Origin: Lachnospiraceae bacterium
GTDB taxonomy: Bacteria > Bacillota > Clostridia > Lachnospirales > Lachnospiraceae
DNA length: 64,000 nt
Direction of reading: 5' to 3'
NCBI GenBank assembly: GCA_015057945.1
Contig: SVDD01000007.1
Location: forward strand, 26,830-90,829
Both the position numbers and the translations under genes were made by a program. Shown here piece after piece: positions 16,088 through 63,878 of this stretch. How positions within the stretch are numbered: the stretch's first letter is position 1; each line of letters opens with the position of its first letter. Under the pieces are notes generated by a model. That model saw only the letters and a program-made list of their open reading frames with translations. It did not search any database and was not told the origin of the DNA.

Positions 16088-16158
16088 TGATGTAAGTGTT
16101 ATGAGACTCCGCACACATTTTCAGCCCATATAAGAGAAGCCTTATGACACCTGTATCA
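16088..16158. mobile_element. Miniature degenerate copy of the 182-bp TIR element, with a 5-bp TSD (AATCA)
   Basis: Ends TGATGTAAGTGTTATGAG / CTTATGACACCTGTATCA; AATCA at 16083-87 and 16159-63. Confidence 0.6.
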
Positions 16159-16184
16159 AATCATCAGAAAATCTGGAGCAGCAA

Positions 16185-17969
16185 ATGAAACTTAAATTCC
16201 CATCAAAAAAACTGATCTTCGCCGCTGTGGTTCTCATAGCCGCAGCAGCCGGAGCTTTCTTTTATCTCACCAAACAGAAAGTCTCTGTTTCATCAGATTC
16301 AAAAGTAAAAACCGGAACCGTTACAAGGCAGACCATCCAGTCCTCTTTATCCAGCTCCGGTACCATCTCACCGAAGAACAGCTACAAAATCACCTCAATG
16401 GTTGATGGAACCATCATCTCGGCAGACTTTCAGGAAGGGGATGTGGTGGAAGAGGGGCAGGTACTTTACCAGATAGATTCCTCCTCCATAAATTCGAAGC
16501 TCAGTTCCGCAAACAGTTCACTGGAGCGTTCAGAGAACAGTTACTCAAGAGCTGTCAGCAATTATGACAAGGCATCCTCGGATTTCAGCGGCAATACCGT
16601 AAAGTCCAAGTATACCGGTCATATAAAATCCATAAATATCTCCATCGGAGATCAGGTAAGCTCAAACACGGAGATCGCAGAGATATACGACGATTCAACC
16701 ATGAAGCTGGATGTACCCTTCCTTTCAGTGGAAGCTGCCATGATACCTGTTGGAACTGCAGCAACCGTAGTTATCGAAGATACGCTTGAAGAGGTCATCG
16801 GAATCGTCACTTCGGTTGACTCAATGGAATCCACCCTTACCGGCGGTCAGCTGGTCAGATACGTGACCATTGAGGTTTCTAATCCCGGCGGTCTTACCAC
16901 AGATATGTCCGCCACCGCCAGCATTAACGGCATGAACTCATCCGGTGACGGTACATTCCAGGCAGCAAGAGACTTCACCATAAAGGCAGACAATCTTACT
17001 TCCTCGGTAACTGTAGAACAGCTTCTGGTAAATGAAGGAGACTATGTGGTAGCAGGACAGGCACTTTTCCTTGCGGATGCCGACGACATTGAAGATATCA
17101 TTTACAACTACAAGGACAAGGTCGACAGCGCAAAGTCCTCAGTTGAGAGCGCTCAGTCCAGTCTCGATTCAACAACAGACACTTTCGAAAATTACACCAT
17201 TACGGCACCTATTTCAGGTACTGTAGTCACAAAGAGCGTAAATGTCGGCGAGAACGTTCAGAACGGTTCCTCAGCCACATCCCTCGCAGTAATATATGAC
17301 CTCACAGAAGTCACCTTCGATATGAACATCGATGAGCTTGATATTTCCGCAGTCAAGGTCGGTCAGTCTGTTGATGTAACGGCAGACGCCTTCGAGGGAG
17401 AGACCTTTAAGGGAACTGTTACAAAGATATCCATGGAGGGAACATCTTCAAACGGTGTTACATATTACCCTGTAACAGTGACCATGACAGATTTCGGAGG
17501 CCTTCTTCCCGGCATGAACGTTGAAGGCGTTATCATCCTTGATGAATCCGAAAACGCTCTTGCGATCCCAGTGGATGCCCTTCAGCGCGGCAACAAGGTA
17601 TATGTTAAGAACAAGGCCGGAGAGACCTATGACAGTTCAGCATCATCCGGTGATTCGGATAAATCCGAAAAAACATCTTTCTCAAGCATACCTGACGGCT
17701 TCCATGAAGTTTCAGTAGAAACAGGCCTGACATCAGACACTTATGTGGAGATCGTTTCCGGGGAACTTGAAGAAGGAGACGAGGTCTATGTTTCCCAGTC
17801 CACCGTAAGCTCTGACGAGAACCCGGGCATGATGATGGGAGGTCCCGGCGGATCAGGTGGTCCGGAAGGCTCAGGCGGCCCCGGCGGCGGATTCAGCGGA
17901 TCAGGTGGCGGAAACCGAAGCGGCGGAAGCGGAAACCGAAGCGGTGGAAGCGGTGGTCCTCCAATGTAA
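16185..17969 (+). CDS. MacA/HlyD-type membrane fusion (adaptor) protein with a Gly-rich tail
   Basis: N-terminal TM, two lipoyl-like segments (ITSMVDGTI...EGDVVEEGQVL; ITAPISGTV...VGENV), coiled coils, GG-rich C-terminus. Confidence 0.85.
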   Translation: MKLKFPSKKLIFAAVVLIAAAAGAFFYLTKQKVSVSSDSKVKTGTVTRQTIQSSLSSSGTISPKNSYKITSMVDGTIISADFQEGDVVEEGQVLYQIDSSSINSKLSSANSSLERSENSYSRAVSNYDKASSDFSGNTVKSKYTGHIKSINISIGDQVSSNTEIAEIYDDSTMKLDVPFLSVEAAMIPVGTAATVVIEDTLEEVIGIVTSVDSMESTLTGGQLVRYVTIEVSNPGGLTTDMSATASINGMNSSGDGTFQAARDFTIKADNLTSSVTVEQLLVNEGDYVVAGQALFLADADDIEDIIYNYKDKVDSAKSSVESAQSSLDSTTDTFENYTITAPISGTVVTKSVNVGENVQNGSSATSLAVIYDLTEVTFDMNIDELDISAVKVGQSVDVTADAFEGETFKGTVTKISMEGTSSNGVTYYPVTVTMTDFGGLLPGMNVEGVIILDESENALAIPVDALQRGNKVYVKNKAGETYDSSASSGDSDKSEKTSFSSIPDGFHEVSVETGLTSDTYVEIVSGELEEGDEVYVSQSTVSSDENPGMMMGGPGGSGGPEGSGGPGGGFSGSGGGNRSGGSGNRSGGSGGPPM

Positions 17970-18066
17970 AGATGTGAGTGTCAAAAGTCGATATCGGGAC
18001 GTGTCATGATTCTTCCGTCACTTTTGTGGAAGCTCAGGTGAAGGTAAGCTTATGACACTTATATCC
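17970..18066 (+). mobile_element. Internally deleted copy (97 bp) of the 182-bp TIR element
   Basis: Both ends present (GATGTGAGTGTCAAAAGTCGATATCGG ... CTTATGACACTTATATC); the central module is missing. Confidence 0.8.
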
Positions 18067-18119
18067 AAATCTTGAAGGGAATCACTTGCGGATTCCCTGA
18101 TTTTAAAAAAGGACATTAT

Positions 18120-19097
18120 ATGGCAATTAAAGACATTATCAAAAAACAGGAGGCAGAATCGGCCGAACCCGTAAGAACCGGAGAACCCGGTACGGAGGAA
18201 AATGCGAAAAAGGCGGATGGAATTTACAAAGACACTGCCGCTGCTTTTCAGGAGCCCGGTTCTGACGAATCGGAGCCTGATGAATATGCCGAGAACCACG
18301 AAGAAATCGCAAAGCTTAAAGCTGCTCAGGAAGCAGTACGGAACAGGGGAGGAAAAAATCAGACCCTGTACATTCCTAAGGAGCACATAGGCAAGCTGCC
18401 TCTTCTGGAGCTTAGGGATATATATAAGATCTACAAGATGGGCTCCGAGGAGGTCCACGCCAACGACGGAATTTCCATCAATATATATGACGGTGATTTC
18501 GTCGCCATTGTCGGAAAGTCAGGTTCCGGCAAATCCACCCTCATGAACATCATCGGAGCCCTGGATGTACCGACCAGCGGAAGATATCTCATAAACGGTC
18601 AGGATACTTCCTCCATGACAGATGACGAGCTTGCCAACATCAGAAACAAAAAGATAGGATTCATTTTCCAGCAGTATAATCTTCTTCCGAAGGATAATCT
18701 TCTGGACAATGTCTGCCTGCCCCTTCTTTATGCCGGTGTTCCTAAGGCAGAACAGAAGGAGCGTGCCATGAAGCAGCTTGAGAGAGTAGGCCTTGCTGAC
18801 AAGTGGATGCAAAAGCCCGCTCAGCTTTCCGGAGGTCAGCAGCAAAGAGTATCCATTGCAAGAGCCCTTGCGGGGGACCCTGAGCTTATCCTTGCGGACG
18901 AGCCCACCGGAGCTCTTGATTCAAAGACTTCAAGACAGGTGCTTGGCTTCCTGAAAGATATCAACAGAGACGGCAATACCGTCGTGATGATCACACATGA
19001 CAATTCCATCGCGCTTGAAGCGAAAAGAATAGTGCGTATATCCGACGGTAAGGTAGTTTATGACGGAACAGCGGAGGACTATGCTAAACTCATTTAA
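18120..19097 (+). CDS. MacB/LolD-type ABC ATP-binding protein with a charged N-terminal extension
   Basis: GKSGSGKST, FIFQQYNLL, LSGGQQQRV, ADEPTGALD, ITHD; AAGGA RBS before ATG 18120. Confidence 0.93.
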   Translation: MAIKDIIKKQEAESAEPVRTGEPGTEENAKKADGIYKDTAAAFQEPGSDESEPDEYAENHEEIAKLKAAQEAVRNRGGKNQTLYIPKEHIGKLPLLELRDIYKIYKMGSEEVHANDGISINIYDGDFVAIVGKSGSGKSTLMNIIGALDVPTSGRYLINGQDTSSMTDDELANIRNKKIGFIFQQYNLLPKDNLLDNVCLPLLYAGVPKAEQKERAMKQLERVGLADKWMQKPAQLSGGQQQRVSIARALAGDPELILADEPTGALDSKTSRQVLGFLKDINRDGNTVVMITHDNSIALEAKRIVRISDGKVVYDGTAEDYAKLI

Positions 19098-20271
19098 TCT
19101 GGCTCTTAAGAGCATATGGTCAAACAAGATGCGATCGTTCCTGACCATGCTTGGAATCATCATCGGCGTGGCTGCAGTCATCATACTTGTAGGTATAGTC
19201 AACGGCGAAATGTCCTACATGACCGAAAGCTTTGCATCCATGGGAACAAATCGTATCAATGTCAATGTTACAAACCTGAGCTCCCGTTCGGTATCAGTGG
19301 ACGAGATGTATTCATTTTATGCTGATAATGAAGAGTATTTCTCCAACCTTTCTCCAACAGTTTCGGTCAGCGCCACAGTAAAGGTAGGAAATGAAAATTC
19401 AGACCAGACATCGGTCACGGGAGTTTCAGAGGATTATCTCTCTATCATGGATTATGACCTTGAAAAGGGACGTTTTATCCAGTACGCGGACATCGCAGCG
19501 AGACAGAAGGTGGCGGTCATAGGTCTTTATGTAGCGGAGACCTATTATGTGTCTGCGGAGAAAGCCATCGGGCAGCGTATCAGTGTTAACGGAACAAAAT
19601 ATCAGATCGTGGGGGTCGTTGAACGTCAGACCTCCGCAAGCGAGGAGATGAGCGAGGGAGGAAGCGATGACTTCCTGTATATACCTTATACAGCAGCCGT
19701 AAAGCTCTCACGTAACGGAACCATAAACAGTTATATCTTCACACTGCGGGACAGCTATGTGGAGAAGGCCTCAACAGTAACAGAGGTCATCGAGGATTTC
19801 CTCTACACCATCTTCAAAAACGAGGATCTGTACAGAGTAACAGCCATGAGTGAACTTCTTGACTCCATGAATGACATGATAGCCCAGATGTCACTTATGC
19901 TCGGTGGTATAGCCGGTATCTCACTGCTTGTTGCCGGTGTCGGCGTCATGAACATCATGCTGGTATCCGTAACCGAACGAACCAGAGAGATTGGAATCAG
20001 AAAGGCTCTCGGTGCAAAAAAATCCACCATACTTATGCAGTTCGTTATCGAAGCAGCCGTGACCAGTTCCATGGGCGGTATCATCGGTATCGTCATCGGC
20101 TGCATCGGAACCACCATGGCAGGAAAGATCATGAGTATCGATGCACAGCCCTCCTTCGGCTGGATTATCGCATCCTTCACCATCTCCATGAGCATCGGTC
20201 TTATCTTCGGATATATGCCTGCAAGAAGTGCCGCAACACTGAATCCTATCGATGCGCTTCGCTCGGATTGA
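19081..20271 (+). CDS. MacB/FtsX-like ABC permease
   Basis: NKMRSFLTMLGIIIGV, ISLLVAGVGVMNIMLVSVTERTREIGIRKALGA, A.LNPIDALRSD. Confidence 0.95.
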   Translation: MLNSFNLALKSIWSNKMRSFLTMLGIIIGVAAVIILVGIVNGEMSYMTESFASMGTNRINVNVTNLSSRSVSVDEMYSFYADNEEYFSNLSPTVSVSATVKVGNENSDQTSVTGVSEDYLSIMDYDLEKGRFIQYADIAARQKVAVIGLYVAETYYVSAEKAIGQRISVNGTKYQIVGVVERQTSASEEMSEGGSDDFLYIPYTAAVKLSRNGTINSYIFTLRDSYVEKASTVTEVIEDFLYTIFKNEDLYRVTAMSELLDSMNDMIAQMSLMLGGIAGISLLVAGVGVMNIMLVSVTERTREIGIRKALGAKKSTILMQFVIEAAVTSSMGGIIGIVIGCIGTTMAGKIMSIDAQPSFGWIIASFTISMSIGLIFGYMPARSAATLNPIDALRSD

Positions 20272-20317
20272 TGTAAATCATTTACCAATCATTTAAAATG
20301 AACAGTGGCATACAGGA

Positions 20318-20360
20318 CAGAATTCGGTGACCGGTGCGGTGACCGAATTCTTCTTGCTTT
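20318..20360 (+). terminator. Terminator of the SLH-exporter operon
   Basis: AGAATTCGGT...ACCGAATTCT stem followed by TCTTGCTTTT. Confidence 0.6.
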
Positions 20361-20392
20361 TCGGAACTATTACCTGCAAATGATTTTTCTGT

Positions 20393-20512
20393 TTGCAAAA
20401 TAGCTTCTGCAGTGTTATCATTCACTATGTTTTTTTAGGAAGTAAATTATAAGAGGTGACAAAGGCGTCACAGGGACACTCGGGGTGTCTCTGGCCTTGT
20501 CACCTCTTTTTT
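20393..20512 (+). promoter_or_regulatory. pyrG promoter with a T7 tract at the predicted start site and a leader terminator
   Basis: TTGCAA (20393-98)-N17-TATCAT (20416-21) with extended TG; GTTTTTTT at 20429-36; hairpin AGAGGTGACAA...TTGTCACCTCT plus T6 at about 20452-20512. Confidence 0.65.
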
Positions 20513-20514
20513 AG

Positions 20515-20766
20515 TGCATAAGTCCCTGTCAGGCGGCTATGCAGACTGCAAGTTTACTTGCAAGGATGCATAGGCATCTGACAGGACAACAGAAATCGAG
20601 AAGCAGCGCATCGCGCGGATTCGAGATTTCTGCAGGATTGCGAGAGTGCGAAGCACGAAGCAATCCGTGGGACTTATGCACGTATGCATATTATAAGTCC
20701 CTGTCAGGCGACTATGCAGACTGCAAGTTTACTTGCAAGGATGCATATTATAAGTCCATATCAGGC
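20515..20766. repeat. Inverted-repeat element (TGCATAAGTCCC...GGGACTTATGCA, about 165 bp) followed by a re-duplication of its first ~55 bp
   Basis: TAAGTCCCTGTCAGGCG(G/A)CTATGCAGACTGCAAGTTTACTTGCAAGGATGCATA occurs at about 20519 and 20694. Confidence 0.7.
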
Positions 20767-20791
20767 TCAGCAACAGAAAGGGGAGTAGCAT

Positions 20792-22387
20792 ATGATCAAG
20801 TACGTATTTGTAACAGGTGGAGTGGTTTCCGGTCTCGGAAAGGGAATTACAGCCGCATCTCTGGGAAGACTTCTTAAAGCGAGAGGCTACAAGGTGACCA
20901 TGCAGAAGTTCGACCCGTATATTAACATCGACCCTGGCACCATGAATCCTATCCAGCATGGTGAGGTCTTTGTCACAGATGACGGAACTGAGACAGACCT
21001 GGATCTCGGACACTATGAGCGTTTCATTGACGAATCCCTTGACCATCGTTCCAATGTCACTTCCGGAAAGGTATACTGGTCCGTTCTTAACAAGGAACGC
21101 CACGGTGAGTACGAAGGTCACACTGTACAGGTCATCCCTCACATAACAAATGAAATAAAGTCTGATTTCTATCGTTCCGATGATCCTGAAGAGGACCGCA
21201 TAGCCATCATCGAGGTAGGCGGAACAGTAGGAGATATAGAGTCACAGCCTTTCCTTGAGGCCATCCGTCAGTTCCAACATGATATCGGTCATGAAAATGC
21301 CATCATGATCCATGTGACCCTCATTCCTTACCTTCACGCTTCGGAGGAGCTTAAAACCAAGCCCACACAGATGAGCGTAAGAGAGCTTCAGCGTCTCGGA
21401 CTTCAGACAGATATCCTTGTATGCCGCACAGAGCATCCTATCCCTCAGGACATCAAGGACAAGATCGCCATGTTCTGTAACCTGCCTGCAAACCACGTTC
21501 TTCAGAACACCAATGCCGAGTTCATTTACGAAGTACCTCTTCTTATGGAGCACGAGCATCTCGCACAGTCTGTGTGCGAATGTCTCCACCTTCCATGCCC
21601 CGAGCCGGATCTTTCGGGCTGGAAGTCCATGGTTGAAAATCTCCGCCATCCCGAAAAGGAAGTAGTCATTGCCCTTGTCGGAAAGTACACTCAGCTTCAT
21701 GATGCATACCTTAGTGTTGCAGAGTCTCTTAAGCACGGCGGTGTTGCAAATCATGCCAAAGTAAACATCCGCTGGGTGGACTCAGAGGAGGTAGAAAAGG
21801 TAGGTGCCGCAACACTCCTTCAGGGTGTAGACGGAATCCTGGTTCCCGGAGGGTTCGGTCAGAGAGGTATCGAAGGCATGATCATGGCTGCCCGGTATGC
21901 AAGAGAAAACAAGATACCTTACCTCGGCATCTGTCTCGGTATGCAGATCTCCATCATCGAATTTGCAAGAAATGTTCTCGGCTGGAAGGATGCAAATTCA
22001 ACCGAGTTCGATCCTAATACAACCCACCCTGTCATCGACCTTATGCCGGAGCAGAAGACTGTAACAGATCTCGGAGGAACCATGCGTCTCGGAGCTTATC
22101 CTTGTGATCTCCGTGAAGGAACAAAGGCACACGCTGTTTACGGAAAGACTTCCATTTCCGAGCGTCACAGACACAGATACGAGGTGAACAATGACTTCCG
22201 CAGGGAGCTTGAAGAGGCAGGTATGGAGCTTGTAGGACAGTCACCTGACGGTCACATCGTTGAGATAGTTGAGCTTAAGGACCATCCTTACTTCCTGGCA
22301 ACTCAGGCACACCCTGAATTCAAGTCAAGACCGAACGATGCACATCCTCTTTTCAAGGGACTCATAGAGGCAGCGCTTAAGAGATAA
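20792..22387 (+). CDS. pyrG: CTP synthase
   Basis: [50 protein letters not shown]. Confidence 0.99.
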
Positions 22388-22392
22388 TTCAA

Positions 22393-22574
22393 TGACGATA
22401 TAGTAAACCGTCGATATCGGAACGCTTCGCGCTATGCGCTCTCGCGTTCCTCCCACATTCCGCACTCTCAGGCCGATAAATCGTCCCTTCGTGCTCCATG
22501 TGGGGCGTGTCATGAAGTCTGTCTTCCACTTTAGTGCAAGCACAAGTGGAAGAAGACTTATGACACTTATATCA
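22393..22574 (+). mobile_element. Full-length (182 bp) TIR element with a degenerate left end
   Basis: Body nearly identical to 53106-53287; right end ACTTATGACACTTATATCA. Confidence 0.85.
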
Positions 22575-22722
22575 TATTAACACATGTTCATGTGATTATG
22601 CACGTGTTGACAGGTATGATATTCTATAATACGACTCATGAAATATTAAGAAGAGGCTCCTGAGGAACCTCTTCTTTTAATTTGCTTTTTGAATTACATT
22701 TATATTTAAGGAGGACTTATTC

Positions 22723-25377: not shown

Positions 25378-25425
25378 TATAAAAGACTATTAAGAGCTTG
25401 CAGTTTTATGCAGGCTCTTTTATCA

Positions 25426-25604
25426 TGGCATAAGTGTCATAAGTCCATCCGGCATCTATGCTGGCATAAGTGCCGGATGGACTTAATGACGCGCCCTAAC
25501 ATGGAGCACGGAATGACGCTTTAGCGGCATGGGAGTGCGGAATGTGGGAGGAGCGCGTTAGCACGAAGTGCGAAGCGATCCTATGTCAAAATCGACAAGT
25601 CACT
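25426..25604 (-). mobile_element. Divergent member of the 182-bp element family with compensatory stem changes (end approximate)
   Basis: Shares ATAAGTGTCATAAGTC, CATGGAGCACG and GAGTGCGGAATGTGGGAGGA with the other copies; stems differ in sequence but still pair. Confidence 0.75.
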
Positions 25605-25615
25605 AAAGGAGTCTT

Positions 25616-33595: not shown

Positions 33596-33623
33596 CGATA
33601 TCGGCTTTTTGACACTCACATCA
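33596..33623 (-). repeat. Isolated left end of the 182-bp element
   Basis: CGATATCGGCTTTTTGACACTCACATCA is approximately the reverse complement of the element left end. Confidence 0.65.
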
Positions 33624-38147: not shown

Positions 38148-38194
38148 ATCAGTGAGTGACAGATCTTAGTTATAGCTTTATAACACTTATGTCA
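38148..38194. repeat. 47-bp remnant carrying both ends of the 182-bp element
   Basis: GTGAGTGACA ... TTTATAACACTTATGTCA; the right end matches 15/18 of CTTATGACACTTATATCA. Confidence 0.45.
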
Positions 38195-52873: not shown

Positions 52874-53105
52874 ATCAAACTACTCCTTTTGCAAAAAAAT
52901 ATCGCAATTTACGTAATTATTTAATTTCAATACCATTATACATTGTTAAGAAAACATTTCCATAGTATTCTTTCATTTTTCTTTTAATTCGCGTTTTTTA
53001 TAAAGTATTGATTAATTTTTTGTTAAATTTTACACTTGGTCCATGCCAATCAAGATAATAAGATTCATAATGATAAGTGTTATTCATAAAACAGAACTAA
53101 ATAAA

Positions 53106-53287
53106 TGATGTGAGTGTCAAAAGTAGATATCGGACCGCTTCGCGCTATGCGCTCTCGCGTTCCTCCCACATTCCGCACTCTCAGGCCGATAAATCGTCCT
53201 TTCGTGCTCCATGTGGGGCGTGTCATGAAGTCTATCCTCCACTTTTGTGCAAGCACAAGTGGAGGAAGACTTATGACACTTATATCA
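53106..53287 (+). mobile_element. Full-length 182-bp TIR element with a 6-bp TSD (AATAAA)
   Basis: TGATGTGAGTGTCAAAAGT ... ACTTATGACACTTATATCA; AATAAA at 53100-05 and 53288-93. Confidence 0.9.
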
Positions 53288-53373
53288 AATAAATGGTTTA
53301 TAACCAAAATAAAAAATGTGGTTCGATCATTGACAGCGATCTTGTACCATGCTAGTCTAAAACCAACAAGAGA

Positions 53374-53486
53374 ATATTTTCTTCGGGGCAGGGTGTGATT
53401 CCCTACCGGCGGTATAGTCCGCGAGCCTTTGTGCATGAACCGGTGTGATTCCGGTACCGACAGTATAGTCTGGATGAGAGAAGAAA
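53374..53486 (+). ncRNA. FMN riboswitch (RFN element)
   Basis: TCTTCGGGGCAGGGTG..ATTCCCTACCGGCGGTATAG...CCGGTG..ATTCCGGTACCGACAGTATAGTCTGGATGAGAGAAGA; promoter TTGACA-N17-TAGTCT upstream. Confidence 0.95.
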
Positions 53487-53504
53487 CGTAATGACGCGAT
53501 TATT

Positions 53505-53540
53505 TATCTCAGTACCCGAACAGGTACTGAGATTTTTTTA
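53505..53540 (+). terminator. Expression-platform terminator of the FMN riboswitch
   Basis: ATCTCAGTAC-ccgaacag-GTACTGAGAT followed by T7. Confidence 0.85.
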
Positions 53541-53565
53541 TTTCATTGTAAAGGAGAGTAGTATC

Positions 53566-54189
53566 ATGTCAAATAAGATTAATGTTCAGAAGCTGGTTTA
53601 CACAGGACTTCTTACAGCCCTTGCGGGAGTGCTCATGACCTTTGAGTTCAGCATTCCCTTCTTCCCGCCATTTTACAAGATAGACTTCAGTGATGTTCCC
53701 AGTGTCATCGCACTTTTCACCATGGGACCTTTATCCGGACTCTTCGTTGAGATAGCAAAGCTTGTCATCAAACTTATCACTGTGGGAACAAACAGTATGT
53801 ATGTTGGAGAAGTTTCAAACATGCTCGGAGCATTGCTCTTTATATTCCCTCTGTGGTTCCTTTTCAAGAAGACAGGAAAAACAGATAAGGGTATAGCAAT
53901 AGCTCTTATTACGAGCGTTATCATCCGCACAGCATGGATGTGCTTCTGCAATGCTTTTATCACACTTCCTATGTACGCAGCGGCAATGGGCTTAAGCATT
54001 AACGATGTGGTAGTTATGGTTTCCTCAGTTAACCCGATGATCAAGGATCTTCCTACATTCATCATCCTTGCTACCATTCCTTTCAACCTTATCAAGTTAT
54101 GTCTTGTATATGCACTTTCGTTTGTGCTTTTCTCAAGACTCAGAGTTTCCGTTCCCGGATTTCGGGCAATGAAGACAACCAATGTGTGA
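53566..54189 (+). CDS. ribU: ECF transporter S component, probably riboflavin-specific (RibU)
   Basis: FYKIDFSDVP, GEVSN and PFNLIK S-component motifs; directly under the FMN riboswitch; AAGGAG RBS before ATG 53566. Confidence 0.85.
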   Translation: MSNKINVQKLVYTGLLTALAGVLMTFEFSIPFFPPFYKIDFSDVPSVIALFTMGPLSGLFVEIAKLVIKLITVGTNSMYVGEVSNMLGALLFIFPLWFLFKKTGKTDKGIAIALITSVIIRTAWMCFCNAFITLPMYAAAMGLSINDVVVMVSSVNPMIKDLPTFIILATIPFNLIKLCLVYALSFVLFSRLRVSVPGFRAMKTTNV

Positions 54190-54339: not shown

Positions 54340-54372
54340 ATCTTAGTCGCTTGATTTAAGTGATCAAGAAAT

Positions 54373-54447
54373 CGGGGTGTGGCTCAGTTTGGCTAGAGCG
54401 CTTGGTTAGGGACCAAGAGATCGTGGGTTCAAATCCCGTCACTCCGA
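54373..54447 (+). tRNA. tRNA-Pro with anticodon AGG (A34)
   Basis: Complete cloverleaf: acceptor CGGGGTG/CACTCCG + A73, anticodon arm CTTGG-TTAGGGA-CCAAG (AGG at 54408-10), T loop TTCAAAT; CCA not encoded. Confidence 0.92.
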
Positions 54448-54681
54448 TGAACAGTGAAAGACGAAGGCCTAAAGTGATCGGGCTTTCGTCTTTTTTTCTT
54501 ATAAATCAATTAGTTATCATTGTTCTCATAGACTTATATCAACTCATGGTATATGATAGCGGAATTTAAAAATACACTTCACGGCAGCATAGCTCAACAC
54601 TTATTTTTCAAAAAAGTGTTGACAAGAATCATGAATTTATGTAATATACAACGGTCGCTTGAAACGGGCGGCGAAATAGTC

Positions 54682-54756
54682 CGGGGTGTGGCTCAGTTTG
54701 GCTAGAGCACCTGGTTTGGGACCAGGGGGTCGCAGGTTCGAATCCTGTCACCCCGA
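54682..54756 (+). tRNA. tRNA-Pro(TGG)
   Basis: CCTGG-TTTGGGA-CCAGG anticodon arm; own promoter TTGACA (54619-24)-N17-TAATAT. Confidence 0.97.
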
Positions 54757-54967
54757 CGATGAGAGAGTGGGAATCCTTGTTTTAAAGGGTTCCTTTTTTT
54801 ATTTTTCATTCTGGTAGCGCCAGGTGATGCCGGTTTTTTTAACATCAATTTCCCATCATACGCATACGCGCATACGCTGAAATAATGATAAAATAAAAAA
54901 GCATTGACAAAAAGAGACTCTGGATTATATAATATGTAAGCTGTCTGAGACGGACAGCAAAAAAGCT

Positions 54968-55042
54968 CGGGGTGTGGCTCAGTTTGGCTAGAGCACCTGG
55001 TTTGGGACCAGGGGGTCGCAGGTTCGAATCCTGTCACCCCGA
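54968..55042 (+). tRNA. tRNA-Pro(TGG), identical second copy
   Basis: Identical to 54682-54756; own promoter TTGACA (54904-09)-N18-TATAAT. Confidence 0.97.
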
Positions 55043-55317
55043 CGAGGTTTAAAGAGGTTCGGATTTTTCCGGGCTTCTTTTTTTGTTATAAAACCGGTCC
55101 CATGTTCCTGAACCTGCACACGGGACCGGTAAGCGGAACAGGGCAGGATGACTGAGTTATGACAGAGCTGCGGATTTATTGCATAGCAGAATCTCCGGCA
55201 CATGACAGAGCTGCTGTTTTACCGTAACTCCCTTCATACAAAAGCTGTACTGTACAGGCATATCGCCCGCATCAGTACAGCTTTCTATAGATAACTCCCC
55301 CTATGAGCTTGTAAACA

Positions 55318-56056: not shown

Positions 56057-56227
56057 ATGAATGTAATAAGTAATCGTGAGCTCCATCTCAGAAAATTTGA
56101 GAGGAGACTGCAAAAAATAGGCGAGGAGGAATCGTATCAGAAACATTACCGTGATACGACGACCATCCTGAGTTTTGACAAATGCCGGAAAAAGAAGAGC
56201 CTTGATGTGAGGGTCGAAGCACTTTAA
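56057..56227 (+). CDS. Possible small basic hypothetical protein
   Basis: GGGA upstream of ATG 56057; no recognisable motif. Confidence 0.3.
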   Translation: MNVISNRELHLRKFERRLQKIGEEESYQKHYRDTTTILSFDKCRKKKSLDVRVEAL

Positions 56228-56328
56228 AACCGGACACGTATAGGGTTTATATCCATTTATTCAAATTTATACAGTATCTTTTACAGGAATTTTTAAAGGC
56301 CGACGGAGTTTCCCACGTCGGCCTTTTG

Positions 56329-56510
56329 TGATATAAGTGTCATAAGTCTTCCTCCACTTGTGCTTGCACAAAAGTGGAGGATAGACTTCATGACACGCCC
56401 CACATGGAGCACGAAAGGGCGATTTATCGGCCTGAGAGTGCGGAATGTGGGAGGAACGCGAGAGCGCATAGCGCGAAGTGGTCCGATATCGACTTTTGAC
56501 ACTAACATCT
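56329..56510 (-). mobile_element. Full-length 182-bp TIR element, inverted orientation
   Basis: Near-exact reverse complement of 53106-53287; no TSD seen. Confidence 0.9.
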
Positions 56511-56581
56511 TAAAATCATTTGCACCTCACTGATCAGCGCCAGCGCACACATACGTTTGCAATGTACCGCTTATCAGCACA

Positions 56582-57223
56582 TCAGCTTTTAACGATGCTT
56601 ACACCGCTTGATGCTCCGATTCTGTCTGCACCTGCAGCGATAAGCTCCTCTGTGAACTTCTTAGTGTGAATTCCTCCGCTTGCCTTGATCTTGAGCCGAT
56701 CGCCGACAGTCTGCTTCATCAGTTTAACATCCTCCACAGTGGCTCCTGCCGTTGAAAAGCCCGTGGAAGTCTTTACAAAGGCTGCTCCGGCTTCTTCCGC
56801 AAGCTCACAGGCCTTAACCTTTTCATCATCGCTCAGGAGACAGGTCTCTATGATCACCTTCACTATAGACGGTTTTGATGCTTCCACCACAGCCCTTATA
56901 TCATCTCTTACAAGATCATAGTTTCCATCCTTCAAGGCACCGACATTTATTACCATATCAACTTCACCGGCACCTCTTTTTACAGCTTCAGCCGCTTCAA
57001 AGGCCTTCGCAGCGGTTATCATGGCTCCAAGGGGGAACCCTACCACAACACATGGTGTCACATCTGAGCCCTTAAGCTCCGAGACCACCGTGTCTATGTG
57101 ACAGGTGTTGACACATACAGAATGAAATCCATATTCCTTTGCCTCAGCGCATAAACGTTTTACCTGTTCGGTCGTTGCATCCGCCTTAAGGATAGTGTGA
57201 TCTATCATTTTTGCCAAATTCAT
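56582..57223 (-). CDS. deoC: Deoxyribose-phosphate aldolase
   Basis: [53 protein letters not shown]; GGAGG RBS. Confidence 0.98.
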
Positions 57224-57432
57224 CATTAACCTCCAAAATCCAAACTGATTCCAAATGAGTTTTTTCAATTACATGGTCACGTATCTGTTCCATGAAACCT
57301 GACAGGAAACGATACAGAGCACTAAATTTTAATACCTCAGAAATCATTTGTAATGTTCATTTCATGATACGTCCTGTATAATTGTATTTGATATTATCAG
57401 TTCGTTCAATCTAATCATGAAAGGAGATCTAA

Positions 57433-58116
57433 ATGAGATATTCTATCGAAGGTGAACCGTTTCCTGTTGTGATATGTGATCTGGATTCAGGAGAAGAGAT
57501 GATTACCGAGTCAGGTGCCATGGCCTGGATGAGCAACAACATGAATATGGCTACTCAGGGCGGCGGAATCGGAAAGATGTTTGGCAGGATGGTATCAGGA
57601 GAATCCATCTTCCTGAACCGCTATACCGCTATGGGCGGTCCGGGAATGATCGCATTTGCATCAAGTTTTCCCGGCTCCATCAGAGCTTACGAGATAAGTC
57701 CGGGCAACGAGATCATCGCACAGAAAAAGGCTTTTCTCGCTGCGACAAGCGGTGTAGAGCTTTCTGTAGCATTCCAGAAGAAGGTCGGTAGCGGCTTCTT
57801 CGGCGGTGAGGGCTTCATCATGCAGAGAATTTCCGGTAACGGAATGGCATTTCTTGAGTTTGACGGATATGTCAAGGAGTATACTCTTCAGCCGGGACAG
57901 CAGATGATCATAGATACCGGTTACCTTGCCGCAATGGACAATACCTGCACTATTGATATCCAGATGATCAAGGGCGTAAAAAATATGCTCTTCGGCGGCG
58001 AAGGACTCTTCAACACAGTGCTCACCGGCCCCGGCAGGATATGGATACAGTCCTTGCCTATTCCTCAGGTAGCAACGAGCCTGATTCCATACCTCCCTCT
58101 CGGAAAGAGCAGTTAA
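57433..58116 (+). CDS. TIGR00266/AIM24-family protein
   Basis: ESGAMAWM, GESIFLNRY, FFGGEGFIMQ, GGEGLFNTVLTGPGRIWIQS. Confidence 0.9.
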   Translation: MRYSIEGEPFPVVICDLDSGEEMITESGAMAWMSNNMNMATQGGGIGKMFGRMVSGESIFLNRYTAMGGPGMIAFASSFPGSIRAYEISPGNEIIAQKKAFLAATSGVELSVAFQKKVGSGFFGGEGFIMQRISGNGMAFLEFDGYVKEYTLQPGQQMIIDTGYLAAMDNTCTIDIQMIKGVKNMLFGGEGLFNTVLTGPGRIWIQSLPIPQVATSLIPYLPLGKSS

Positions 58117-58134
58117 AAAGGATGTAGTATAATA

Positions 58135-58316
58135 TGATATAAGTGTCATAAGTCTTCCTCCACTTGTGCTTGCACAAAAGTGGAGGATAGACTTCATGAC
58201 ACGCCCCACATGGAGCACGAAAGGACGATTTATCGGCCTGAGAGTGCGGAATGTGGGAGGAACGCGAGAGCGCCTAGCGCGAAGCGGTCCTATATCGACT
58301 TTTGACACTAACATCA
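58135..58316 (-). mobile_element. Full-length 182-bp TIR element with a 5-bp TSD (TAATA), abutting the yjfB-like start codon
   Basis: TAATA at 58130-34 and 58317-21; the right TSD overlaps the A of ATG 58321. Confidence 0.9.
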
Positions 58317-58320
58317 TAAT

Positions 58321-58509
58321 ATGGATATTATTTCAAGCATTTCCACAGTTGCGGCTAATTACTCCATGCAGAAGGTGGCCACTGCCATAGGCACAGCCAT
58401 TTTTTCAAAGGTATTGGATCAGGCCGAAACAGGCGGAGCTGACATGATAAAGCTCCTTGAGCAGTCGGCCAATCCCGATTTAGGCGCCAATTTTGATGCC
58501 CTCGCATAA
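58321..58509 (+). CDS. YjfB-family small protein (putative motility protein)
   Basis: MDIISSIST...SKVLDQAE...M.KLLEQS.NPDLGANFD pattern. Confidence 0.75.
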   Translation: MDIISSISTVAANYSMQKVATAIGTAIFSKVLDQAETGGADMIKLLEQSANPDLGANFDALA

Positions 58510-58789
58510 AAAAGCCGTTCTTGTCAGAAACAGGACAGGTGTTCACAGGGATAGTGAACGCCTGTCTTTTTTTGCGCGAAAATCAGTATACACCGATACC
58601 TGTCCTATAAAGTTATGCATCGCCCTGAAAGACAAGTCAAAATATCCTTATTTTTTCCAAAATACGTGAATATTTTTTAAAATAGGTATTATTTTTATTT
58701 AAATCTGCCGATAGAAAGTATGTGATTTACAGTGAAGGTGTCTTGCGTTTAATTATACAATCCACCCTCATCATTTTCAGGAGGTTTCT

Positions 58790-59884
58790 ATGCAAAGTAA
58801 AGTAGGCTATAGTTCAAATCATGATGCTAGGTCCGCTGTTGAGGAAGCAACTCGTGATATATCCAACCCTATCGGTCTTATCATCATGACTGATCATGAT
58901 CGCCTTGCCGAGATATCGGCACTCCTTAAAAAGAAATATCCCAGAGCACAGTCTATCGGTGTCAGCGGCATAAACTATTACAATACACAGTATTCCGATC
59001 ACAATCTTGTCGTAACAGCGATTACCGGTGATGCAGTGCTCGATGCCGGCGTGATGAGATTTCTTTCAACCTGCCCGGCCGCAGACATTGCCTCACTAAA
59101 GGATAGTATCCGTGTTGTAAACGGAAACAGAGAGAATACAGTCCTTCTTGAATATTGCACAAATGATGAAGAGCGTCTCACAACAACACTCAACATCGCA
59201 CTGGGAGAAACCGGAATTCATGTGGTCGGCGGTACGGAGTTCGGTTATGCTGCCAATGCCACACCTGCTGTCACTGTAAACGGACAGCTTTATCCCGATG
59301 CCTGTGCATATATGCTCATCAAGAACACCAGCGGAAAAGTAAGAGTTTATTCTGAAATTGCGTACGGAGCTATGGATGGTCACCCTATGCACAAGGTAAC
59401 CAAAGTAAACCTTAAGGATAAGCAGGTATTTGAAGTTGACCACCGTCCCGTTGCCAATGTCTACAGCAATGAGATGCAGGTGCCCGTGGACAAGGTTGTT
59501 GACAGCGTTCTTGAACACCCCTTCGGTCGTATAGTAGGTGATCAGGTATTCATCGCATCACAGAAGGAATTAAAGGACGGAAACTCATTGACATTTTTTA
59601 AGAGACTCAATGTAAACGATGCAGTATCCATTCTCCAGTTAAACGATTATGATGCCATTAACAAAGAAACCGTCAGGGATATCCTGTCGGAAGGCAGCAA
59701 GCCTTCGCTTCTCATATCCGTAAACTGCATATACAGATATCTGCTGTATACCGGTAATGGCTTTTTCGGAACACTTCTTCAGAATATGGCTTCGTTGGGA
59801 CCGCACATCGGAAACATCGGAGGCGGTGAACAGGTAGATAACCAGCATGTAAACCAGACCATGGTCGTTGCCGTATTTGATTGA
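58790..59884 (+). CDS. FIST_N/FIST_C sensory domain protein
   Basis: VVGGT, EVDHRPVANVY, HPFGR, VNCIYR and GEQ...HVNQT motifs of FIST proteins; no TM. Confidence 0.85.
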   Translation: MQSKVGYSSNHDARSAVEEATRDISNPIGLIIMTDHDRLAEISALLKKKYPRAQSIGVSGINYYNTQYSDHNLVVTAITGDAVLDAGVMRFLSTCPAADIASLKDSIRVVNGNRENTVLLEYCTNDEERLTTTLNIALGETGIHVVGGTEFGYAANATPAVTVNGQLYPDACAYMLIKNTSGKVRVYSEIAYGAMDGHPMHKVTKVNLKDKQVFEVDHRPVANVYSNEMQVPVDKVVDSVLEHPFGRIVGDQVFIASQKELKDGNSLTFFKRLNVNDAVSILQLNDYDAINKETVRDILSEGSKPSLLISVNCIYRYLLYTGNGFFGTLLQNMASLGPHIGNIGGGEQVDNQHVNQTMVVAVFD

Positions 59885-59899
59885 TAAGGAGGATATACG

Positions 59900-60856
59900 A
59901 TGTTTGCATTTGGAAAAAATAATCAGGATACCTCAAGCGTTTCCTCAGGCAGATCCTTCCGTGCGGACGAACTCGAGGGCCTGCGTTCTATAGGTGAATA
60001 TGCTCTCAAGCAGAAAATGCTGCTTCAGAATGAGGAGACCAAGACCTCTGATGATCTTCAGGGCATTCAGGATTCCTTCGACATAGTGCGTCAGAAATCC
60101 GATGATATTTCCGATTCAGTAAGCTCTTTCCAGACCCAGTTTTCAAGGGTTCAGGAGATCGTGGACAGATTTGACAGCATCATCTCCAAGATGGCATCTA
60201 CCGTCAATGAATCTCACAACAGTATGGACATGGTCAGAGAGAAGTCAAATGACGTTTATGAGACCATTTCAGCCGTTGAGCAGGTTTTTGAAGAGTTCCA
60301 GAAGAGCTTCGCCGAAATTTCAAAGAACGTGGGAGCCATCAACAGAATAGCCAGCCAGACAAACCTCCTCGCTATCAATGCTTCCATTGAGGCGGCTCGT
60401 GCCGGACAGGCAGGAAAGGGCTTCGCAGTTGTTGCCACAGAGGTAAACAAGCTTTCCAAGAACATACAGGAGATCGTTGGTTCCATCGACAGAAGCATGA
60501 ACGATCTTAATTCAAATAACCTTAAGCTAAAGGATGCCATCATCAATACCAGAGCAGCTATCAACGAGTCCCAGACTCAGGTCAATGAGACCGATGCGGT
60601 TGTTGACAGCATCAACGCTGTTTCGGATGACATCGCAAACGGCAACAAGGAGATGCTTCAGGTATTTGATGACTGCAACAGAAACATTAACATGGTCGCT
60701 GCAAATGTCAGAGACTCCGCAGTTTACTACGATAAGGTTGAAGCCGATATCCAGACCATGATGACCAACATCACAAAGAAAGGCTTCGTTTTCGAGGATC
60801 TGAACAATGCTCTCGAGCAGATCGAGCCTCTGGTATCAAGAATGAACAACAGATGA
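59900..60856 (+). CDS. Soluble methyl-accepting chemotaxis protein (signalling domain only)
   Basis: [36 protein letters not shown] hairpin; no TM segment. Confidence 0.92.
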
Positions 60857-60880
60857 TAAAAATGAACAACAGGTGATAAA
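60841..60880. repeat. 20-bp tandem duplication spanning the MCP stop codon
   Basis: AATGAACAACAGATGATAAA AATGAACAACAGGTGATAAA. Confidence 0.8.
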
Positions 60881-61168
60881 GCGGATGCACCCTAACATCC
60901 ACTCTTTCATAAATATTTATACCCCTTCTTTAATAGCCCGCGGCGCAGAGCTGCGGGCTATATCCTCGTGAACGGATATTTCTTCTTTTGTAATCATTTC
61001 TAAAACAACTTCTATTTTTTTATTTTTTATTTGATGTTATATTAATTAAGAACTAATCCGTATGAACCGCCTGGTATAGACCATGTGTGTCTGCGAAAAA
61101 CTGTGTGCGTGTAAAGGTCCGTTATGAGACTTAGACGCTCACGCCATTAGTATAGGAGGATAGATATT

Positions 61169-62830
61169 ATGAGTAGAAAACATTTATCCGGAATGGCTCT
61201 TGCCATGTCTGTGGCTCTTTTGGTTTCAGGCTGCGGATCACAGACCACTCCGGAGATTCCGGAATCCACAACAGCGGAAACAGCTCAAGAAACAACTGCT
61301 GCCGAAGAGACCACGGCTGCCGCTGAAACGAAAGCACCGGAAGCTTCCGACACCGTCGAACAGCTCAGCTATGACCGTAAGTACAATTTCGATTATATTT
61401 ACAAGGATCCTGATGCAGGGTCTGACTCAAGGCTTATTGCCATAGGTCATTACCCTTCAATTAATCTTGGATTCTTCGAGGACGGAGAATTCCTGGAGTA
61501 TCAGGGTCTCTATGAAAAGCTGTCCGACGCCCTTTCAAGCTACAATCAGGACAAACAGGATGCCTTTAAGACCTTTACAGACGAGTGCAGAGAGGTTGCA
61601 GAGAACGACGATAACTTTGAAAAGGATACAGAGGACTCATACGAATACTATTATTCTGTTGACATGGATACTCTGGTCACACGTTCCGACGATGTTGTGT
61701 TCAGTATCTTTGATACCATATACACCAACATGATGGGACCTCATCCAAACACAAGCTTTGATTGCCGCAACATTGATTCAAAGACAGGAGAAGTCCTGAA
61801 GATTTCAGATGTTGTAACTGACAAGGATGCTTTCATTGATGCCCTTGACAAAAAACTTCACGAGGATTATCCCGATCTTGACAGAGAACTGTTCGATCCG
61901 GATCTCAAGGGCACCCTCAGCGATATGTATGATGAGATAGACGGTATGTCACTTACATATAATCTCACCTATGATTCACTCGTTGTAAGTTTTGCAGCTT
62001 ATGAGCTCGCACCATACGCTGTTGGACCTAAGGAGGCCGTACTCAGTTTTGAGGATTACAAGGATCTGATTGACCCTCGTTTCACCAAAACAGCAGATAA
62101 CTATGCATTTGAAGTGAGCATGAGCACACCTTACAGCTTCAAGACAGCCGATGGATCCGTAAAGGCACTTAAGGTTGATTGTGAGACTGCACAGGGCGAA
62201 TACATGGATGATTGCTATGACCTCACTATTTCACTTAACGGCAAGGAATTTAAGGATACCATCATGTATACCTATGGTGTAAGTCCTTACCTTATGTACG
62301 AGAACGGCAAGGCTTTCCTCTATGTACGCAGCAAATCCGACAATGATTACGAATTCACAAGCATCTATGACCTGAACGGCGAAAAGGCCAGAAAGGTAGA
62401 GGATAGTATGGATGGATCTTTCTATTCAACAACTCCTTCTGACCCTGAGGACTTCATCATGTACACAAGATCCGCTCTTTTAAGCACCTTCACTATTTTC
62501 CGTCATTACGAGCTTGATTCGGACGGAAGACCTCAGCCGAAGACAGAAGAGTGGTGGATCAAGACTGACAATGAGCTCACTCTTAAGAAGGATCTGACCC
62601 TTAGTGTGATGGATGAACTTACAAGTGATGGAATTGATAACGGAAAGGATGAGAAGCTTTCAAAGGGAACTGTCCTTAAGCCAAAGCGCACCAATGGTTC
62701 TGCCTGGGTTGACGCCGAAACAGAGGACGGAAGATATGCCCGTATCTATATTGACAATTCCGACTGGCCTCAGACTGTAGACGGTACAGATATCGAAGAG
62801 CTCTTCGACGGAATCATCTTTGCAGGCTAA
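61169..62830 (+). CDS. Lipoprotein with a DUF3298/PdaC-RsiV-like domain
   Basis: Lipobox LVSGC, Thr/Glu/Ala linker, YTNMMGPHPN, NIDSKTGEVLKISDV, F.AYELAPYAVG motifs. Confidence 0.7.
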   Translation: MSRKHLSGMALAMSVALLVSGCGSQTTPEIPESTTAETAQETTAAEETTAAAETKAPEASDTVEQLSYDRKYNFDYIYKDPDAGSDSRLIAIGHYPSINLGFFEDGEFLEYQGLYEKLSDALSSYNQDKQDAFKTFTDECREVAENDDNFEKDTEDSYEYYYSVDMDTLVTRSDDVVFSIFDTIYTNMMGPHPNTSFDCRNIDSKTGEVLKISDVVTDKDAFIDALDKKLHEDYPDLDRELFDPDLKGTLSDMYDEIDGMSLTYNLTYDSLVVSFAAYELAPYAVGPKEAVLSFEDYKDLIDPRFTKTADNYAFEVSMSTPYSFKTADGSVKALKVDCETAQGEYMDDCYDLTISLNGKEFKDTIMYTYGVSPYLMYENGKAFLYVRSKSDNDYEFTSIYDLNGEKARKVEDSMDGSFYSTTPSDPEDFIMYTRSALLSTFTIFRHYELDSDGRPQPKTEEWWIKTDNELTLKKDLTLSVMDELTSDGIDNGKDEKLSKGTVLKPKRTNGSAWVDAETEDGRYARIYIDNSDWPQTVDGTDIEELFDGIIFAG

Positions 62831-63009
62831 TGTATAAGTACAGCCTCCATGACTGATGCCTAAGATGATGAAATACCGGATACTCTTCAGGCTAATGTCT
62901 CCACAGGAAGCACAATAATTAACATTATTTAGAAAAAATTTTACATGGTATTAAAAAGCTGTCCTTTTATCATTATAAAAGGACAGTTTTTTTATTATGG
63001 GAGGAAGTA

Positions 63010-63819
63010 ATGAATATTTCTATATACAACGATTGGGATCATATCCCTAAATACACGGCGGAAGGACAGGATGAAGCAGTACTGTCCTTTGACGGTGAGT
63101 ACAGAAAGGGAGATGTGATACATATTTACGGCCTTGAGCCCGGAAGATTCTATGTCATGCAGCTTGATGCCGTACTGACCCCGTCAGTGGTTTACATAAC
63201 CAAAGAGGAGCTTCTTTATCCGATTCCCTTTTATGAGAAGAAGGAGAACCTTAATCCCCTTACCTTCTACGGAAACCGCCATGTAGTACGCATCAGAAAA
63301 GCAGAAAAACATGAGGTCATGATATACAGAAATCTCTCGGAGAACAGCTTTGATCCCCATGACGATACAGGTGTATATCCCCATGCCAGCGCCAACATCG
63401 AAACCCGCGGCGAATCTGTTTTTGCTGCCGCCAATGCCATAAACGGAAACATTGCCCACGGCTCCCACGGAGAGTGGCCCTACGAATCCTGGGGTATAAA
63501 CTGCAGAGATGACGCAGAGTTCCGTCTTGATTTCGGCCGTCCCGTAAACATCCGGGAAATCCGTATATATGAGCGCTGCGACTTTCCTCATGACAACTGG
63601 TGGACAGAGGGAACCGTCAGCTTTTCAAACGGAAAAAGGGAGATACTCAAGCTTGAAAAGCGGGAGGACGGAAGCGCTCAGAGATTTATGATAACAGAGG
63701 ACAATGTCACATGGCTCACTCTGGGAAACCTTATCAAGTCACAGGACCCAAGTCCATTCCCGGCACTTACCCAGATACAGGTGTTCGGAACGGAGGCATC
63801 CGGGACTGAATGGCGTTAA
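63010..63819 (+). CDS. Putative carbohydrate-binding protein (galactose-binding/F5-8-like C-terminal fold)
   Basis: FAAANAING, FRLDFGRPVNIREIRIY, ALTQIQVFG beta-sandwich pattern; GGAGG RBS. Confidence 0.6.
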   Translation: MNISIYNDWDHIPKYTAEGQDEAVLSFDGEYRKGDVIHIYGLEPGRFYVMQLDAVLTPSVVYITKEELLYPIPFYEKKENLNPLTFYGNRHVVRIRKAEKHEVMIYRNLSENSFDPHDDTGVYPHASANIETRGESVFAAANAINGNIAHGSHGEWPYESWGINCRDDAEFRLDFGRPVNIREIRIYERCDFPHDNWWTEGTVSFSNGKREILKLEKREDGSAQRFMITEDNVTWLTLGNLIKSQDPSPFPALTQIQVFGTEASGTEWR

Positions 63820-63878
63820 GCATCTAACCCACTTTTGTGCGAGCACAAGTGGGTGAGATACTTATGACACTTATATCA
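63820..63878 (+). mobile_element. Right-hand fragment of the 182-bp element
   Basis: CCACTTTTGTGC.AGCACAAGTGG...ACTTATGACACTTATATCA. Confidence 0.8.

Follow-up and report, generated by a model that had tools for sequence, protein, structure and literature searches.

The stretch of DNA analysed here, hereafter the window, comprises 64,000 nucleotides of contig SVDD01000007.1 from a Lachnospiraceae bacterium. It is ordinary chromosome of a rumen Lachnospiraceae, with genes for CTP synthase and nusA-infB, a flavin mononucleotide (FMN) riboswitch with an ECF transporter, and tRNA-Pro genes, and its sequence is identical to part of a 119,763-bp contig (L069) from JGI sample 3300021306. Scattered among these genes are copies of a short non-coding repeat that measures 182 bp in its full-length form. 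We assign this repeat to the Rfam family Clostridiales-1 RNA (RF01699) and interpret it, with a probability of about 0.85, as a miniature inverted-repeat transposable element (MITE) on which an IS1182-like transposase is inferred to act in trans.

Six copies in the window match RF01699 at 92-113 bits across the whole model (positions 1-166), against a curated gathering score of 48 bits. The family, which had not been recognised in a preliminary description of this DNA, has been listed since 2010 as a small RNA (sRNA) gene and is common in human-gut and rumen Clostridia. The original description of the Clostridiales-1 motif gives a large structure of four stems with significant covariation, found in several Clostridiales and very common in human-gut DNA; neither a consistent gene association nor a function was reported (Weinberg et al. 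2010, PMC2864571). The repeat shares with RF01699 its sequence family, its covarying four-stem fold and its gut Clostridiales habitat. The Rfam model spans 163 of the 182 nt, and the omitted last 19 nt are an inverted copy of the first 19. Compared with that model, the rumen 182-bp subfamily therefore has an extra end of 19-20 nt that lengthens the inverted repeat. As published, RF01699 is a non-coding RNA, and mobility, inverted ends and target duplications go unmentioned (PMC2864571). Our literature search found no paper that treats the Clostridiales-1 motif as a mobile element.

Copies of the element range from 71 to 342 bp, have no conserved open reading frame (ORF) and consist for most of their length of stems. 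Their inverted ends, TGATGTGAGTGTCAAAAGTC and TGATATAAGTGTCATAAGTC, are about 20 bp long and identical at 17 of 20 positions. The end pattern TGATRTNAGTGTCA, with up to two mismatches, occurs 21 times in the window, whereas shuffled sequences gave a mean of 3.8 and a maximum of 10. Every window copy lies between ORFs, many within a few bases of a stop codon. These results agree with the inverted ends, intergenic position and lack of coding capacity given in the preliminary description, which had also placed the four 182-bp copies exactly. Two of these lie in each orientation. Three of the four are 97.8-100% identical to the reference copy at 53106, and the copy at 22393 is 95.8% identical. The divergent copy at 25426 and the internally deleted 97-bp copy at 17970 likewise proved real. 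Among the mini and partial copies claimed, those at 16088-16158 and 63829-63878 stood, the latter as one end plus hairpin 1, but 38148-38194 is a weak match only. One of two supposed lone ends, the 28-nt sequence at 33596-33623, was borne out; the other, at 4627, instead opens a second family of repeats, about 95 bp long, that has the same ends (TGATGTGAGTGTCAAAA...CAGCAYATCA) around a different interior, ATTTGCCACTCACTGATCAGCGCCAACGCACACAT. The earlier listing also lacked the copy at 20516-20676, the 73-nt fragment adjacent to it and the partial copy at 5687-5753. The 20516 copy represents another subfamily, with GTGCATAAGTCCC/GGGACTTATGCAC as its closing stem and inverted repeat, and a relative of it was found at L056 7486-7649. 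All features are collected in Table 1.

Table 1. Copies of the element and other features of the window, followed by related sequences elsewhere (L numbers). Strand is that of the Rfam model; identities of copies refer to the 53106 copy.
Feature	Position	Strand	Remarks
Full 182-bp copy	58135..58316	+	RF01699, 113 bits; TAATA duplication at 58130-58134 and 58317-58321
Full 182-bp copy	56329..56510	+	RF01699, 108.1 bits; last base T instead of A; adjoins the 56511-56584 repeat part
Full 182-bp copy	53106..53287	-	RF01699, 110.7 bits; 6-bp AATAAA duplication at 53100-53105 and 53288-53293
Full-length copy with degenerate A-end	22393..22574	-	RF01699, 108.6 bits; between CTP synthase and ArsP_2-family genes
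Divergent copy	25426..25607	+	RF01699, 92 bits; 79% identical
Other-subfamily copy	20516..20676	+	RF01699, 100.5 bits; four-stem fold kept
73-nt fragment of the 20516 subfamily	20686..20758	+	Repeat of its hairpin 1; adjacent to the 20516 copy
Internally deleted 97-bp copy	17970..18066	-	A-end plus hairpin 1 and B-end; blastn, reference positions 2-28 + 110-181
71-bp miniature	16088..16158		Two inverted ends around 33 nt; AATCA duplication at 16083-16087 and 16159-16163
Partial copy	5687..5753	-	Hairpin 1 + B-end; 79% identical
Partial copy	63829..63878	-	Hairpin 1 + B-end; 90% identical
Lone 28-nt A-end	33596..33623	-	TGATGTGAGTGTCAAAAAGCCGATATCG
Doubtful miniature	38148..38194		Weak; at least 2 mismatches in each end
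Second repeat family, start	4627..4700	+	TGAAGTGAGTGTCAAAA then TATTTTCCACTCACTGAT...; aligns with 56511-56584, L037 5889-5975 and L074 1737-1825
Second repeat family, right-hand part	56511..56584	+	Ends ...CAGCACATCA; last bases overlap a minus-strand DeoC-family stop codon
FMN riboswitch	53375..53489		115 bits; upstream of the ECF-transporter gene
ECF-transporter S component	53491..54189		Probably a riboflavin transporter
Three tRNA-Pro genes	54372..55043		Within 700 bp
1854-bp insertion sequence	L343-L352		Ends TGATGCCAGGGTCAAAAGCCCC; TGNCA duplication at AATGNCATT in 8 of 9 distinct places listed, 10 loci in all
1856-bp insertion sequence	L364-L372		Right end ATCGACTTTTGACACTTACATCA versus the element's ATCGACTTTTGACACTAACATCA, 22/23 bases
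1857-bp insertion sequence	L353-L359		Ends TGATGTGGGTGTCAAAAGT; TCACA duplication in its one long contig
80-nt module inside element copies	L016, L027, L042, L058, L067, L010, L025		Oribacterium spp. and Lachnospiraceae JC7

Beyond the window, an 18-nt core of the element is present in Oribacterium sp. P6A1, WCC10, C9 and UBA4274, in Lachnospiraceae bacterium JC7 and in metagenome-assembled genomes of rumen Lachnospiraceae. In an isolate sequencing run with a single-copy depth of about 14, words from the element end occurred at a depth of 1500-3200 and interior words at 300-1400, which implies roughly 100-230 ends and 20-100 interiors in that isolate genome. An earlier extrapolation to hundreds of copies per genome is thus plausible for the ends. 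A blastn search with the element against plasmid and phage collections returned chance fragments only. The end pattern had six matches among viral contigs: two were copies of another subfamily, one (L078) lay inside an ORF, and three were judged from their sequence to be chance.

Target-site duplications and empty sites

Duplications were tabulated for 27 distinct small elements bounded by these ends, drawn from the window, genome loci and metagenome loci. An exact 5-bp duplication flanks 14 of the 27, compared with a mean of 1.4 and a maximum of 6 in 2000 trials with shuffled flank pairings, and with 0-3 in controls where the right flank was shifted. At least three more elements have a 6-bp duplication. 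In all 14 cases the duplicated bases are preceded by A and followed by T, and the target can be written A-TnnTA-T (hyphens enclose the duplicated bases), a loose palindrome such as ATAATAT. Since A...T flanks every duplication, the pattern is equally readable as 5 bp with ends TGAT...ATCA or as 7 bp with ends GAT...ATC. The three duplications reported earlier in the window, at the 16088 miniature and at the 53106 and 58135 copies, are real.

Sister contigs from other samples, which encode the same flanking proteins and whose surrounding DNA is 96-99% identical, allowed individual sites to be compared. The site of the 58135 copy is empty in nine places, eight of which are listed (L068, L070-L076), and reads GTAGTATAATATGGAT; the filled allele consists of GTAGTATAATA, the 182 bp and TAATATGGAT, a net insertion of 187 bp in which TAATA is duplicated. 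The empty allele is also found on one metatranscriptome contig. At the site of the 53106 copy, the empty allele CTAAATAAATGG occurs in L068, L070, L071 and L075, and the net insertion is 188 bp. The 22393 copy and the 20686-20758 fragment are missing from L086-L088, whose flanks are about 99% identical; at the 25426 site these contigs have only a remnant of about 50 nt, with large internal deletions. The 56329 site in L074 and L068 has no 182-bp copy and reads TGATGTG(C/A)GTAT followed by the second repeat, so it is not a clean empty site; in the window, the 182-bp element stands in place of the left end of that second repeat. The 17970-18066 copy is common to the sister strains, their alignment running continuously across the site, and L068 has about 19 nt of unrelated sequence where the window has the 63829-63878 copy.

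These comparisons show gain or loss of the element, together with a 5-bp duplication, among closely related strains. A search for sites in sister strains with a single copy of the duplicated target had been proposed in the preliminary description as the decisive check on insertion, and such sites now exist at two positions, along with the absence of the 22393 copy. Present in some strains and absent from others at about 98-99% identity, the copies would be useful as markers for strain tracking in gut and rumen metagenomes.

A candidate partner insertion sequence

No transposase was found in the window when it was searched by tblastn with the transposase described below, as the preliminary description had also noted; nor was one found beside any copy in the fetched loci. 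Metagenome contigs were scanned for the 20-nt end and filtered against the usual interior, which showed the end on many small elements, miniatures of 46-110 bp among them, in samples from human gut, rumen and fermentation. A very common 71-bp human-gut miniature, TGATGTGAGTGTCAAAAGTCCTCTTGCAAGCAAGCTTGCATCGGCTTTCTGACCTTTTGACCCTGGTATCA, has the same ends (L213, L217, L232, L234, L235 and others). Together with the fermentation miniatures, it shows that the 20-bp end is common to many small-element families across gut Firmicutes. The lead to a transposase came from a 1279-bp relative, shortened by deletion, whose ends match and whose DUF772 transposase gene is truncated. Protein searches from this element returned thousands of relatives, including abundant intact proteins of 532-534 aa that have the Pfam domains DUF772, DDE_Tnp_1 and DDE_Tnp_1_6 (precomputed annotation) and are encoded by a single ORF between inverted ends; one relative is named 'transposase [[Clostridium] symbiosum]'. 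The best NCBIfam match of the transposase is the IS1182 family model NF033551, aligned end to end (model positions 24-487 of 488), at 123-139 bits. Because this score lies below the curated cut-off of 270, we call the protein IS1182-like and not a member of the family. The partner has the domain set of IS1182 insertion sequences (ISs) and, like them, inverted ends and one ORF in about 1.85 kb; its transposase represents a divergent subgroup at most.

IS1182-like elements of 1856-1857 bp encode a 534-aa DDE transposase, and their ends match those of the window element at 22/23 and 18/20 bases. The 1856-bp form is flanked at four of six distinct sites by the duplications TAATA (twice), TGCTA and TATAA, all within A...T. 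The 1857-bp form comes from samples labelled XIEF21 and TONG22, presumably ruminant gut surveys. In a frameshifted copy (L305), the ends equal those of the window element at 19 of 20 positions. The right end of the IS also follows the plan of the element's end and hairpin 1: the inverted end is followed, after a short loop, by the inner 12 nt of that end in inverted form. A more distant relative, the 1854-bp form, has a strictly palindromic target, and the start of the RF01699 consensus, uGaugccAGggccaAag, is nearly letter-identical to its inverted end, TGATGCCAGGGTCAAAAG. At several places this form lies inside or beside other transposase genes (DDE_Tnp_1, IS66).

Taken together, the duplications, the empty sites and the match of ends, duplication length and target to an IS1182-like element support the MITE interpretation and identify a partner family. 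They likewise favour the earlier proposal of a non-autonomous element mobilised in trans, with which a search for a transposase flanked by the same 19-bp ends had been suggested; the intact IS1182-like element from gut metagenomes has nearly identical ends. Judging from sequence comparison, we infer that an IS1182-like transposase is the enzyme that moves the element and that it is present now, or was formerly, in the lineage of the window.

In the mechanism that we envisage, an IS1182-like DDE transposase would be supplied in trans and would bind the ends of about 20 bp that the IS and the element have in common. The element would be excised or copied and joined to staggered cuts 5 bp apart in a palindromic AT-rich target, and gap repair would yield the target duplication of 5 bp, occasionally 6. 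Stop codons and AT-rich spacers supply targets of the form A-TnnTA-T, which would explain why copies abut gene ends. As for the conserved, covarying three-hairpin core, either its compact folding may let insertions be tolerated, or the core may serve the transcript or the element.

Several observations weigh against this interpretation. The interior of the element is more conserved than its ends, which is not predicted for a passive MITE. In blastn comparisons of the IS with the element, the ends alone are common to both and the interiors are unrelated. No IS copy was found in the window or in the Oribacterium and rumen Lachnospiraceae loci fetched around element copies, which amount to about 0.5 Mb, and the IS with matching ends is known from metagenome contigs, not from the window's own genome. 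At least one human-gut assembly (L373) contains the 1856-bp form, which matches best, while the ends of the presumed-ruminant 1857-bp form match slightly less well. Several short IS-bearing metagenome contigs are without a duplication, possibly through chimeric assembly, and no clear flanking duplication was seen for the 20516 subfamily.

Alternatively, the element could be mobile but moved by another enzyme, such as an IS3, IS21, Tn7 or Mu-type DDE transposase or a single-copy host transposase of the RAYT kind. Termini of the form 5'-TG...CA-3' with 5-bp duplications are typical also of retroviral-integrase-type enzymes, and an IS1182-like gene was found neither beside a copy nor in the loci fetched from element-bearing genomes. 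The same termini and duplication length had suggested the IS3, IS21, Tn7 and Mu types as partners, and these candidates were dropped once the IS1182-like match was found. That match is specific in the bases of the ends, and it extends to the duplication length, the AT-rich palindromic target flanked by A...T and the layout of end plus hairpin; further, no element of another family with these ends was present among 120 end-selected metagenome loci. We therefore regard a different enzyme as improbable.

Other routes to a partner were unproductive. When the window and the first 77 loci were searched for an ORF enclosed by two ends at a distance of 0.3-7 kb, the only pairs recovered belonged to separate small copies. 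Metagenome end matches beside long ORFs were considered as IS candidates; the ORFs encode EF-G, hydrogenase and other housekeeping proteins, and the matches are lone ends. A putative promoter at a circle junction, with an outward TTGACA at one end and, 17 bp away over a 5-bp spacer, an inward TATAAG at the other, was also considered, and no claim is made for it, the left end of the IS being without a -10-like hexamer. In L332 (2114-2878), an end-like sequence, TGATGTTGGGGTCAAAAGCCCC, lies 765 bp upstream of the IS left end and bounds a non-coding stretch.

The structured interior

The fold was assessed on 31 distinct copies that are 71-100% identical overall. Its structure was derived from one aligned sequence, which favours it somewhat, and the copies are related by descent, so that counts of pairs and orientations are not independent events. 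Within these limits, 93.5% of cells form standard pairs, compared with 28-48% when the 3' partner is slid, and 31 of 60 base pairs have changes on both sides, compared with 9-11 in the slid controls. The apical stems covary, while an invariance of at least 95% marks the block CGCCCCACATGGAGCACG ... GAGTGCGGAATGTGGGAGGA (also given as CCCACATGGAGCAC...GTGCGGAATGTGGGAGG), which makes up the junction and the second hairpin's base. Hairpins P3 and P4 contain 10 G-U pairs and no A-C pairs, whereas hairpin 1, with 15 G-U and 20 A-C, has no strand asymmetry. The internal loops are purine-rich on the Rfam strand, and the folding energies of the two strands are nearly equal (-79.5 versus -76.5 kcal/mol).

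The Rfam strand is in the sense direction in 18 of the 22 copies between co-directional genes (two-sided binomial of about 0.004, calculated by hand on crude stop-to-stop ORFs). Metatranscriptome contigs cover copies and enter them from the flanking genes; the assemblies are unstranded, depth reflects copy number, and these contigs gave no sign of a discrete RNA. Neither a promoter nor a terminator was found within the element. Certain copies in Oribacterium and in Lachnospiraceae JC7 are longer, at 259-342 bp, and contain one or two 80-nt modules, in some cases with a 53-nt insert. The module, GGGAACGTCAGCCC...GGGCTGACGCTATATGCCAGATTCC..GGAATCTGCCAC, folds into a three-way junction (-39.5 kcal/mol, z = -5.2) and is set precisely in the P3 internal loop, the P4 hairpin or both, without a duplication. 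It matches no Rfam family and was found only inside element copies.

The strength of the covariance-model matches, the compensatory changes, the conserved interior and the bias of orientation toward the sense of neighbouring genes are what would be expected if the copies were chromosomal genes for a trans-acting sRNA (Rfam type Gene; sRNA) that had spread by ordinary duplication and were not mobile. Such genes would not account for polymorphic insertions with target duplications between near-identical strains, for duplications at ten times the chance frequency, or for inverted ends common to a transposase-bearing element. The miniature and internally deleted derivatives lack the RNA core entirely, no internal promoter or terminator was found, and both strands fold about equally well. 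The empty sites contradict this explanation, which we consider very improbable. Once the members of RF01699 are seen as copies of a transposon for which there is a candidate transposase, their abundance and dispersed locations are explained, and such an origin argues against annotating every RF01699 copy as an sRNA gene.

The MITE interpretation leaves a question about the interior. A Rfam scan of the insertion sequences gave no Clostridiales-1 match; the interior is under constraint but cannot derive from the IS. Both its strand asymmetry and its bias of orientation speak for a role at the level of the transcript. Our best guess is that the three-hairpin core folds read-through transcripts compactly, so that sense insertions are tolerated. 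By extension, the core of the MITE could be a selected RNA or single strand that alters the fate of host transcripts or aids transposition. The near-invariant block and covarying apical stems would fit such selection, as would the absence of A-C pairs in P3 and P4, the purine-rich strand of every internal loop, the sense orientation, the precise placement of the 80-nt module in loops, as in functional RNAs, and the transcript contigs that continue from flanking genes into the element. Against this, DNA palindromes may gain compensatory changes by template switching without selection, the copies share descent, hairpin 1 is without strand asymmetry, and the orientation test is based on crude ORFs. 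We therefore hold the extension to be possible but doubtful, and the more specific proposal of a functional RNA module carried by the transposon, acting in processing, stabilisation or insulation of host transcripts or aiding its own transposition, to be rather unlikely. If it were true, Clostridiales-1 would be a mobile RNA device, neither a plain sRNA gene nor a plain MITE. A conserved, covarying and orientation-biased interior is uncommon among MITEs and makes one ask why a structured single-strand module should be kept by a DNA transposon.

Neighbouring features and known small repeats

Copies of the element stand directly beside stop codons, start codons and a riboswitch and may alter gene expression. 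The 58135 copy is placed between the stop codon of an AIM24-family gene and the ATG of a YjfB_motility-family ORF. This insertion parts the ATG (58320) from a likely Shine-Dalgarno sequence, AAGGA (about 58118-58122). An outward TTGACA within the element (58302-58307) and a flanking TATTAT (58326-58331) form a promoter-like match at 11 of 12 bases. The 53106 copy lies 88 nt upstream of the FMN riboswitch. In the nearby tRNA-Pro array, ARAGORN assigns the anticodon AGG, which is unusual for bacteria, to the first gene and TGG to the other two, and the array differs among sister strains. At 20327-20360, downstream of an FtsX-family gene, a GC-rich inverted repeat, GAATTCGGTGACCGGTGCGGTGACCGAATTC, has 33 nt inserted in the window as compared with sister strain L088.

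Both the Rfam family and MITEs as a kind were known already. What appears to be new is the link between RF01699 and a MITE, the candidate partner family and the rule for target and duplication. Compared with the IS1182-like IS, the window element encodes nothing and has in common with it only about 20-23 bp at each end.

Short non-coding intergenic MITEs in tens to hundreds of copies are familiar from other bacteria, such as Correia elements in Neisseria, RUP and BOX in Streptococcus pneumoniae and ERIC in enterobacteria. Such MITEs end in inverted repeats, create target duplications, are transcribed along with neighbouring genes, form stable hairpins and are thought to be moved in trans by an IS transposase. 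These repeats fold mostly through pairing of their long inverted ends, whereas the window element has three independent internal hairpins, a near-invariant core and compensatory changes; in addition, Correia elements duplicate TA and the window element duplicates 5 bp. REPINs resemble the window element in being short, abundant intergenic repeats that form hairpins and rely on an enzyme whose gene lies elsewhere. No target duplication accompanies them, and the enzyme that moves them, the single-copy HUH/Y1 protein RAYT, acts on single-stranded hairpins. The window element differs from them in its duplications and in ends that it has in common with a DDE-transposase element.

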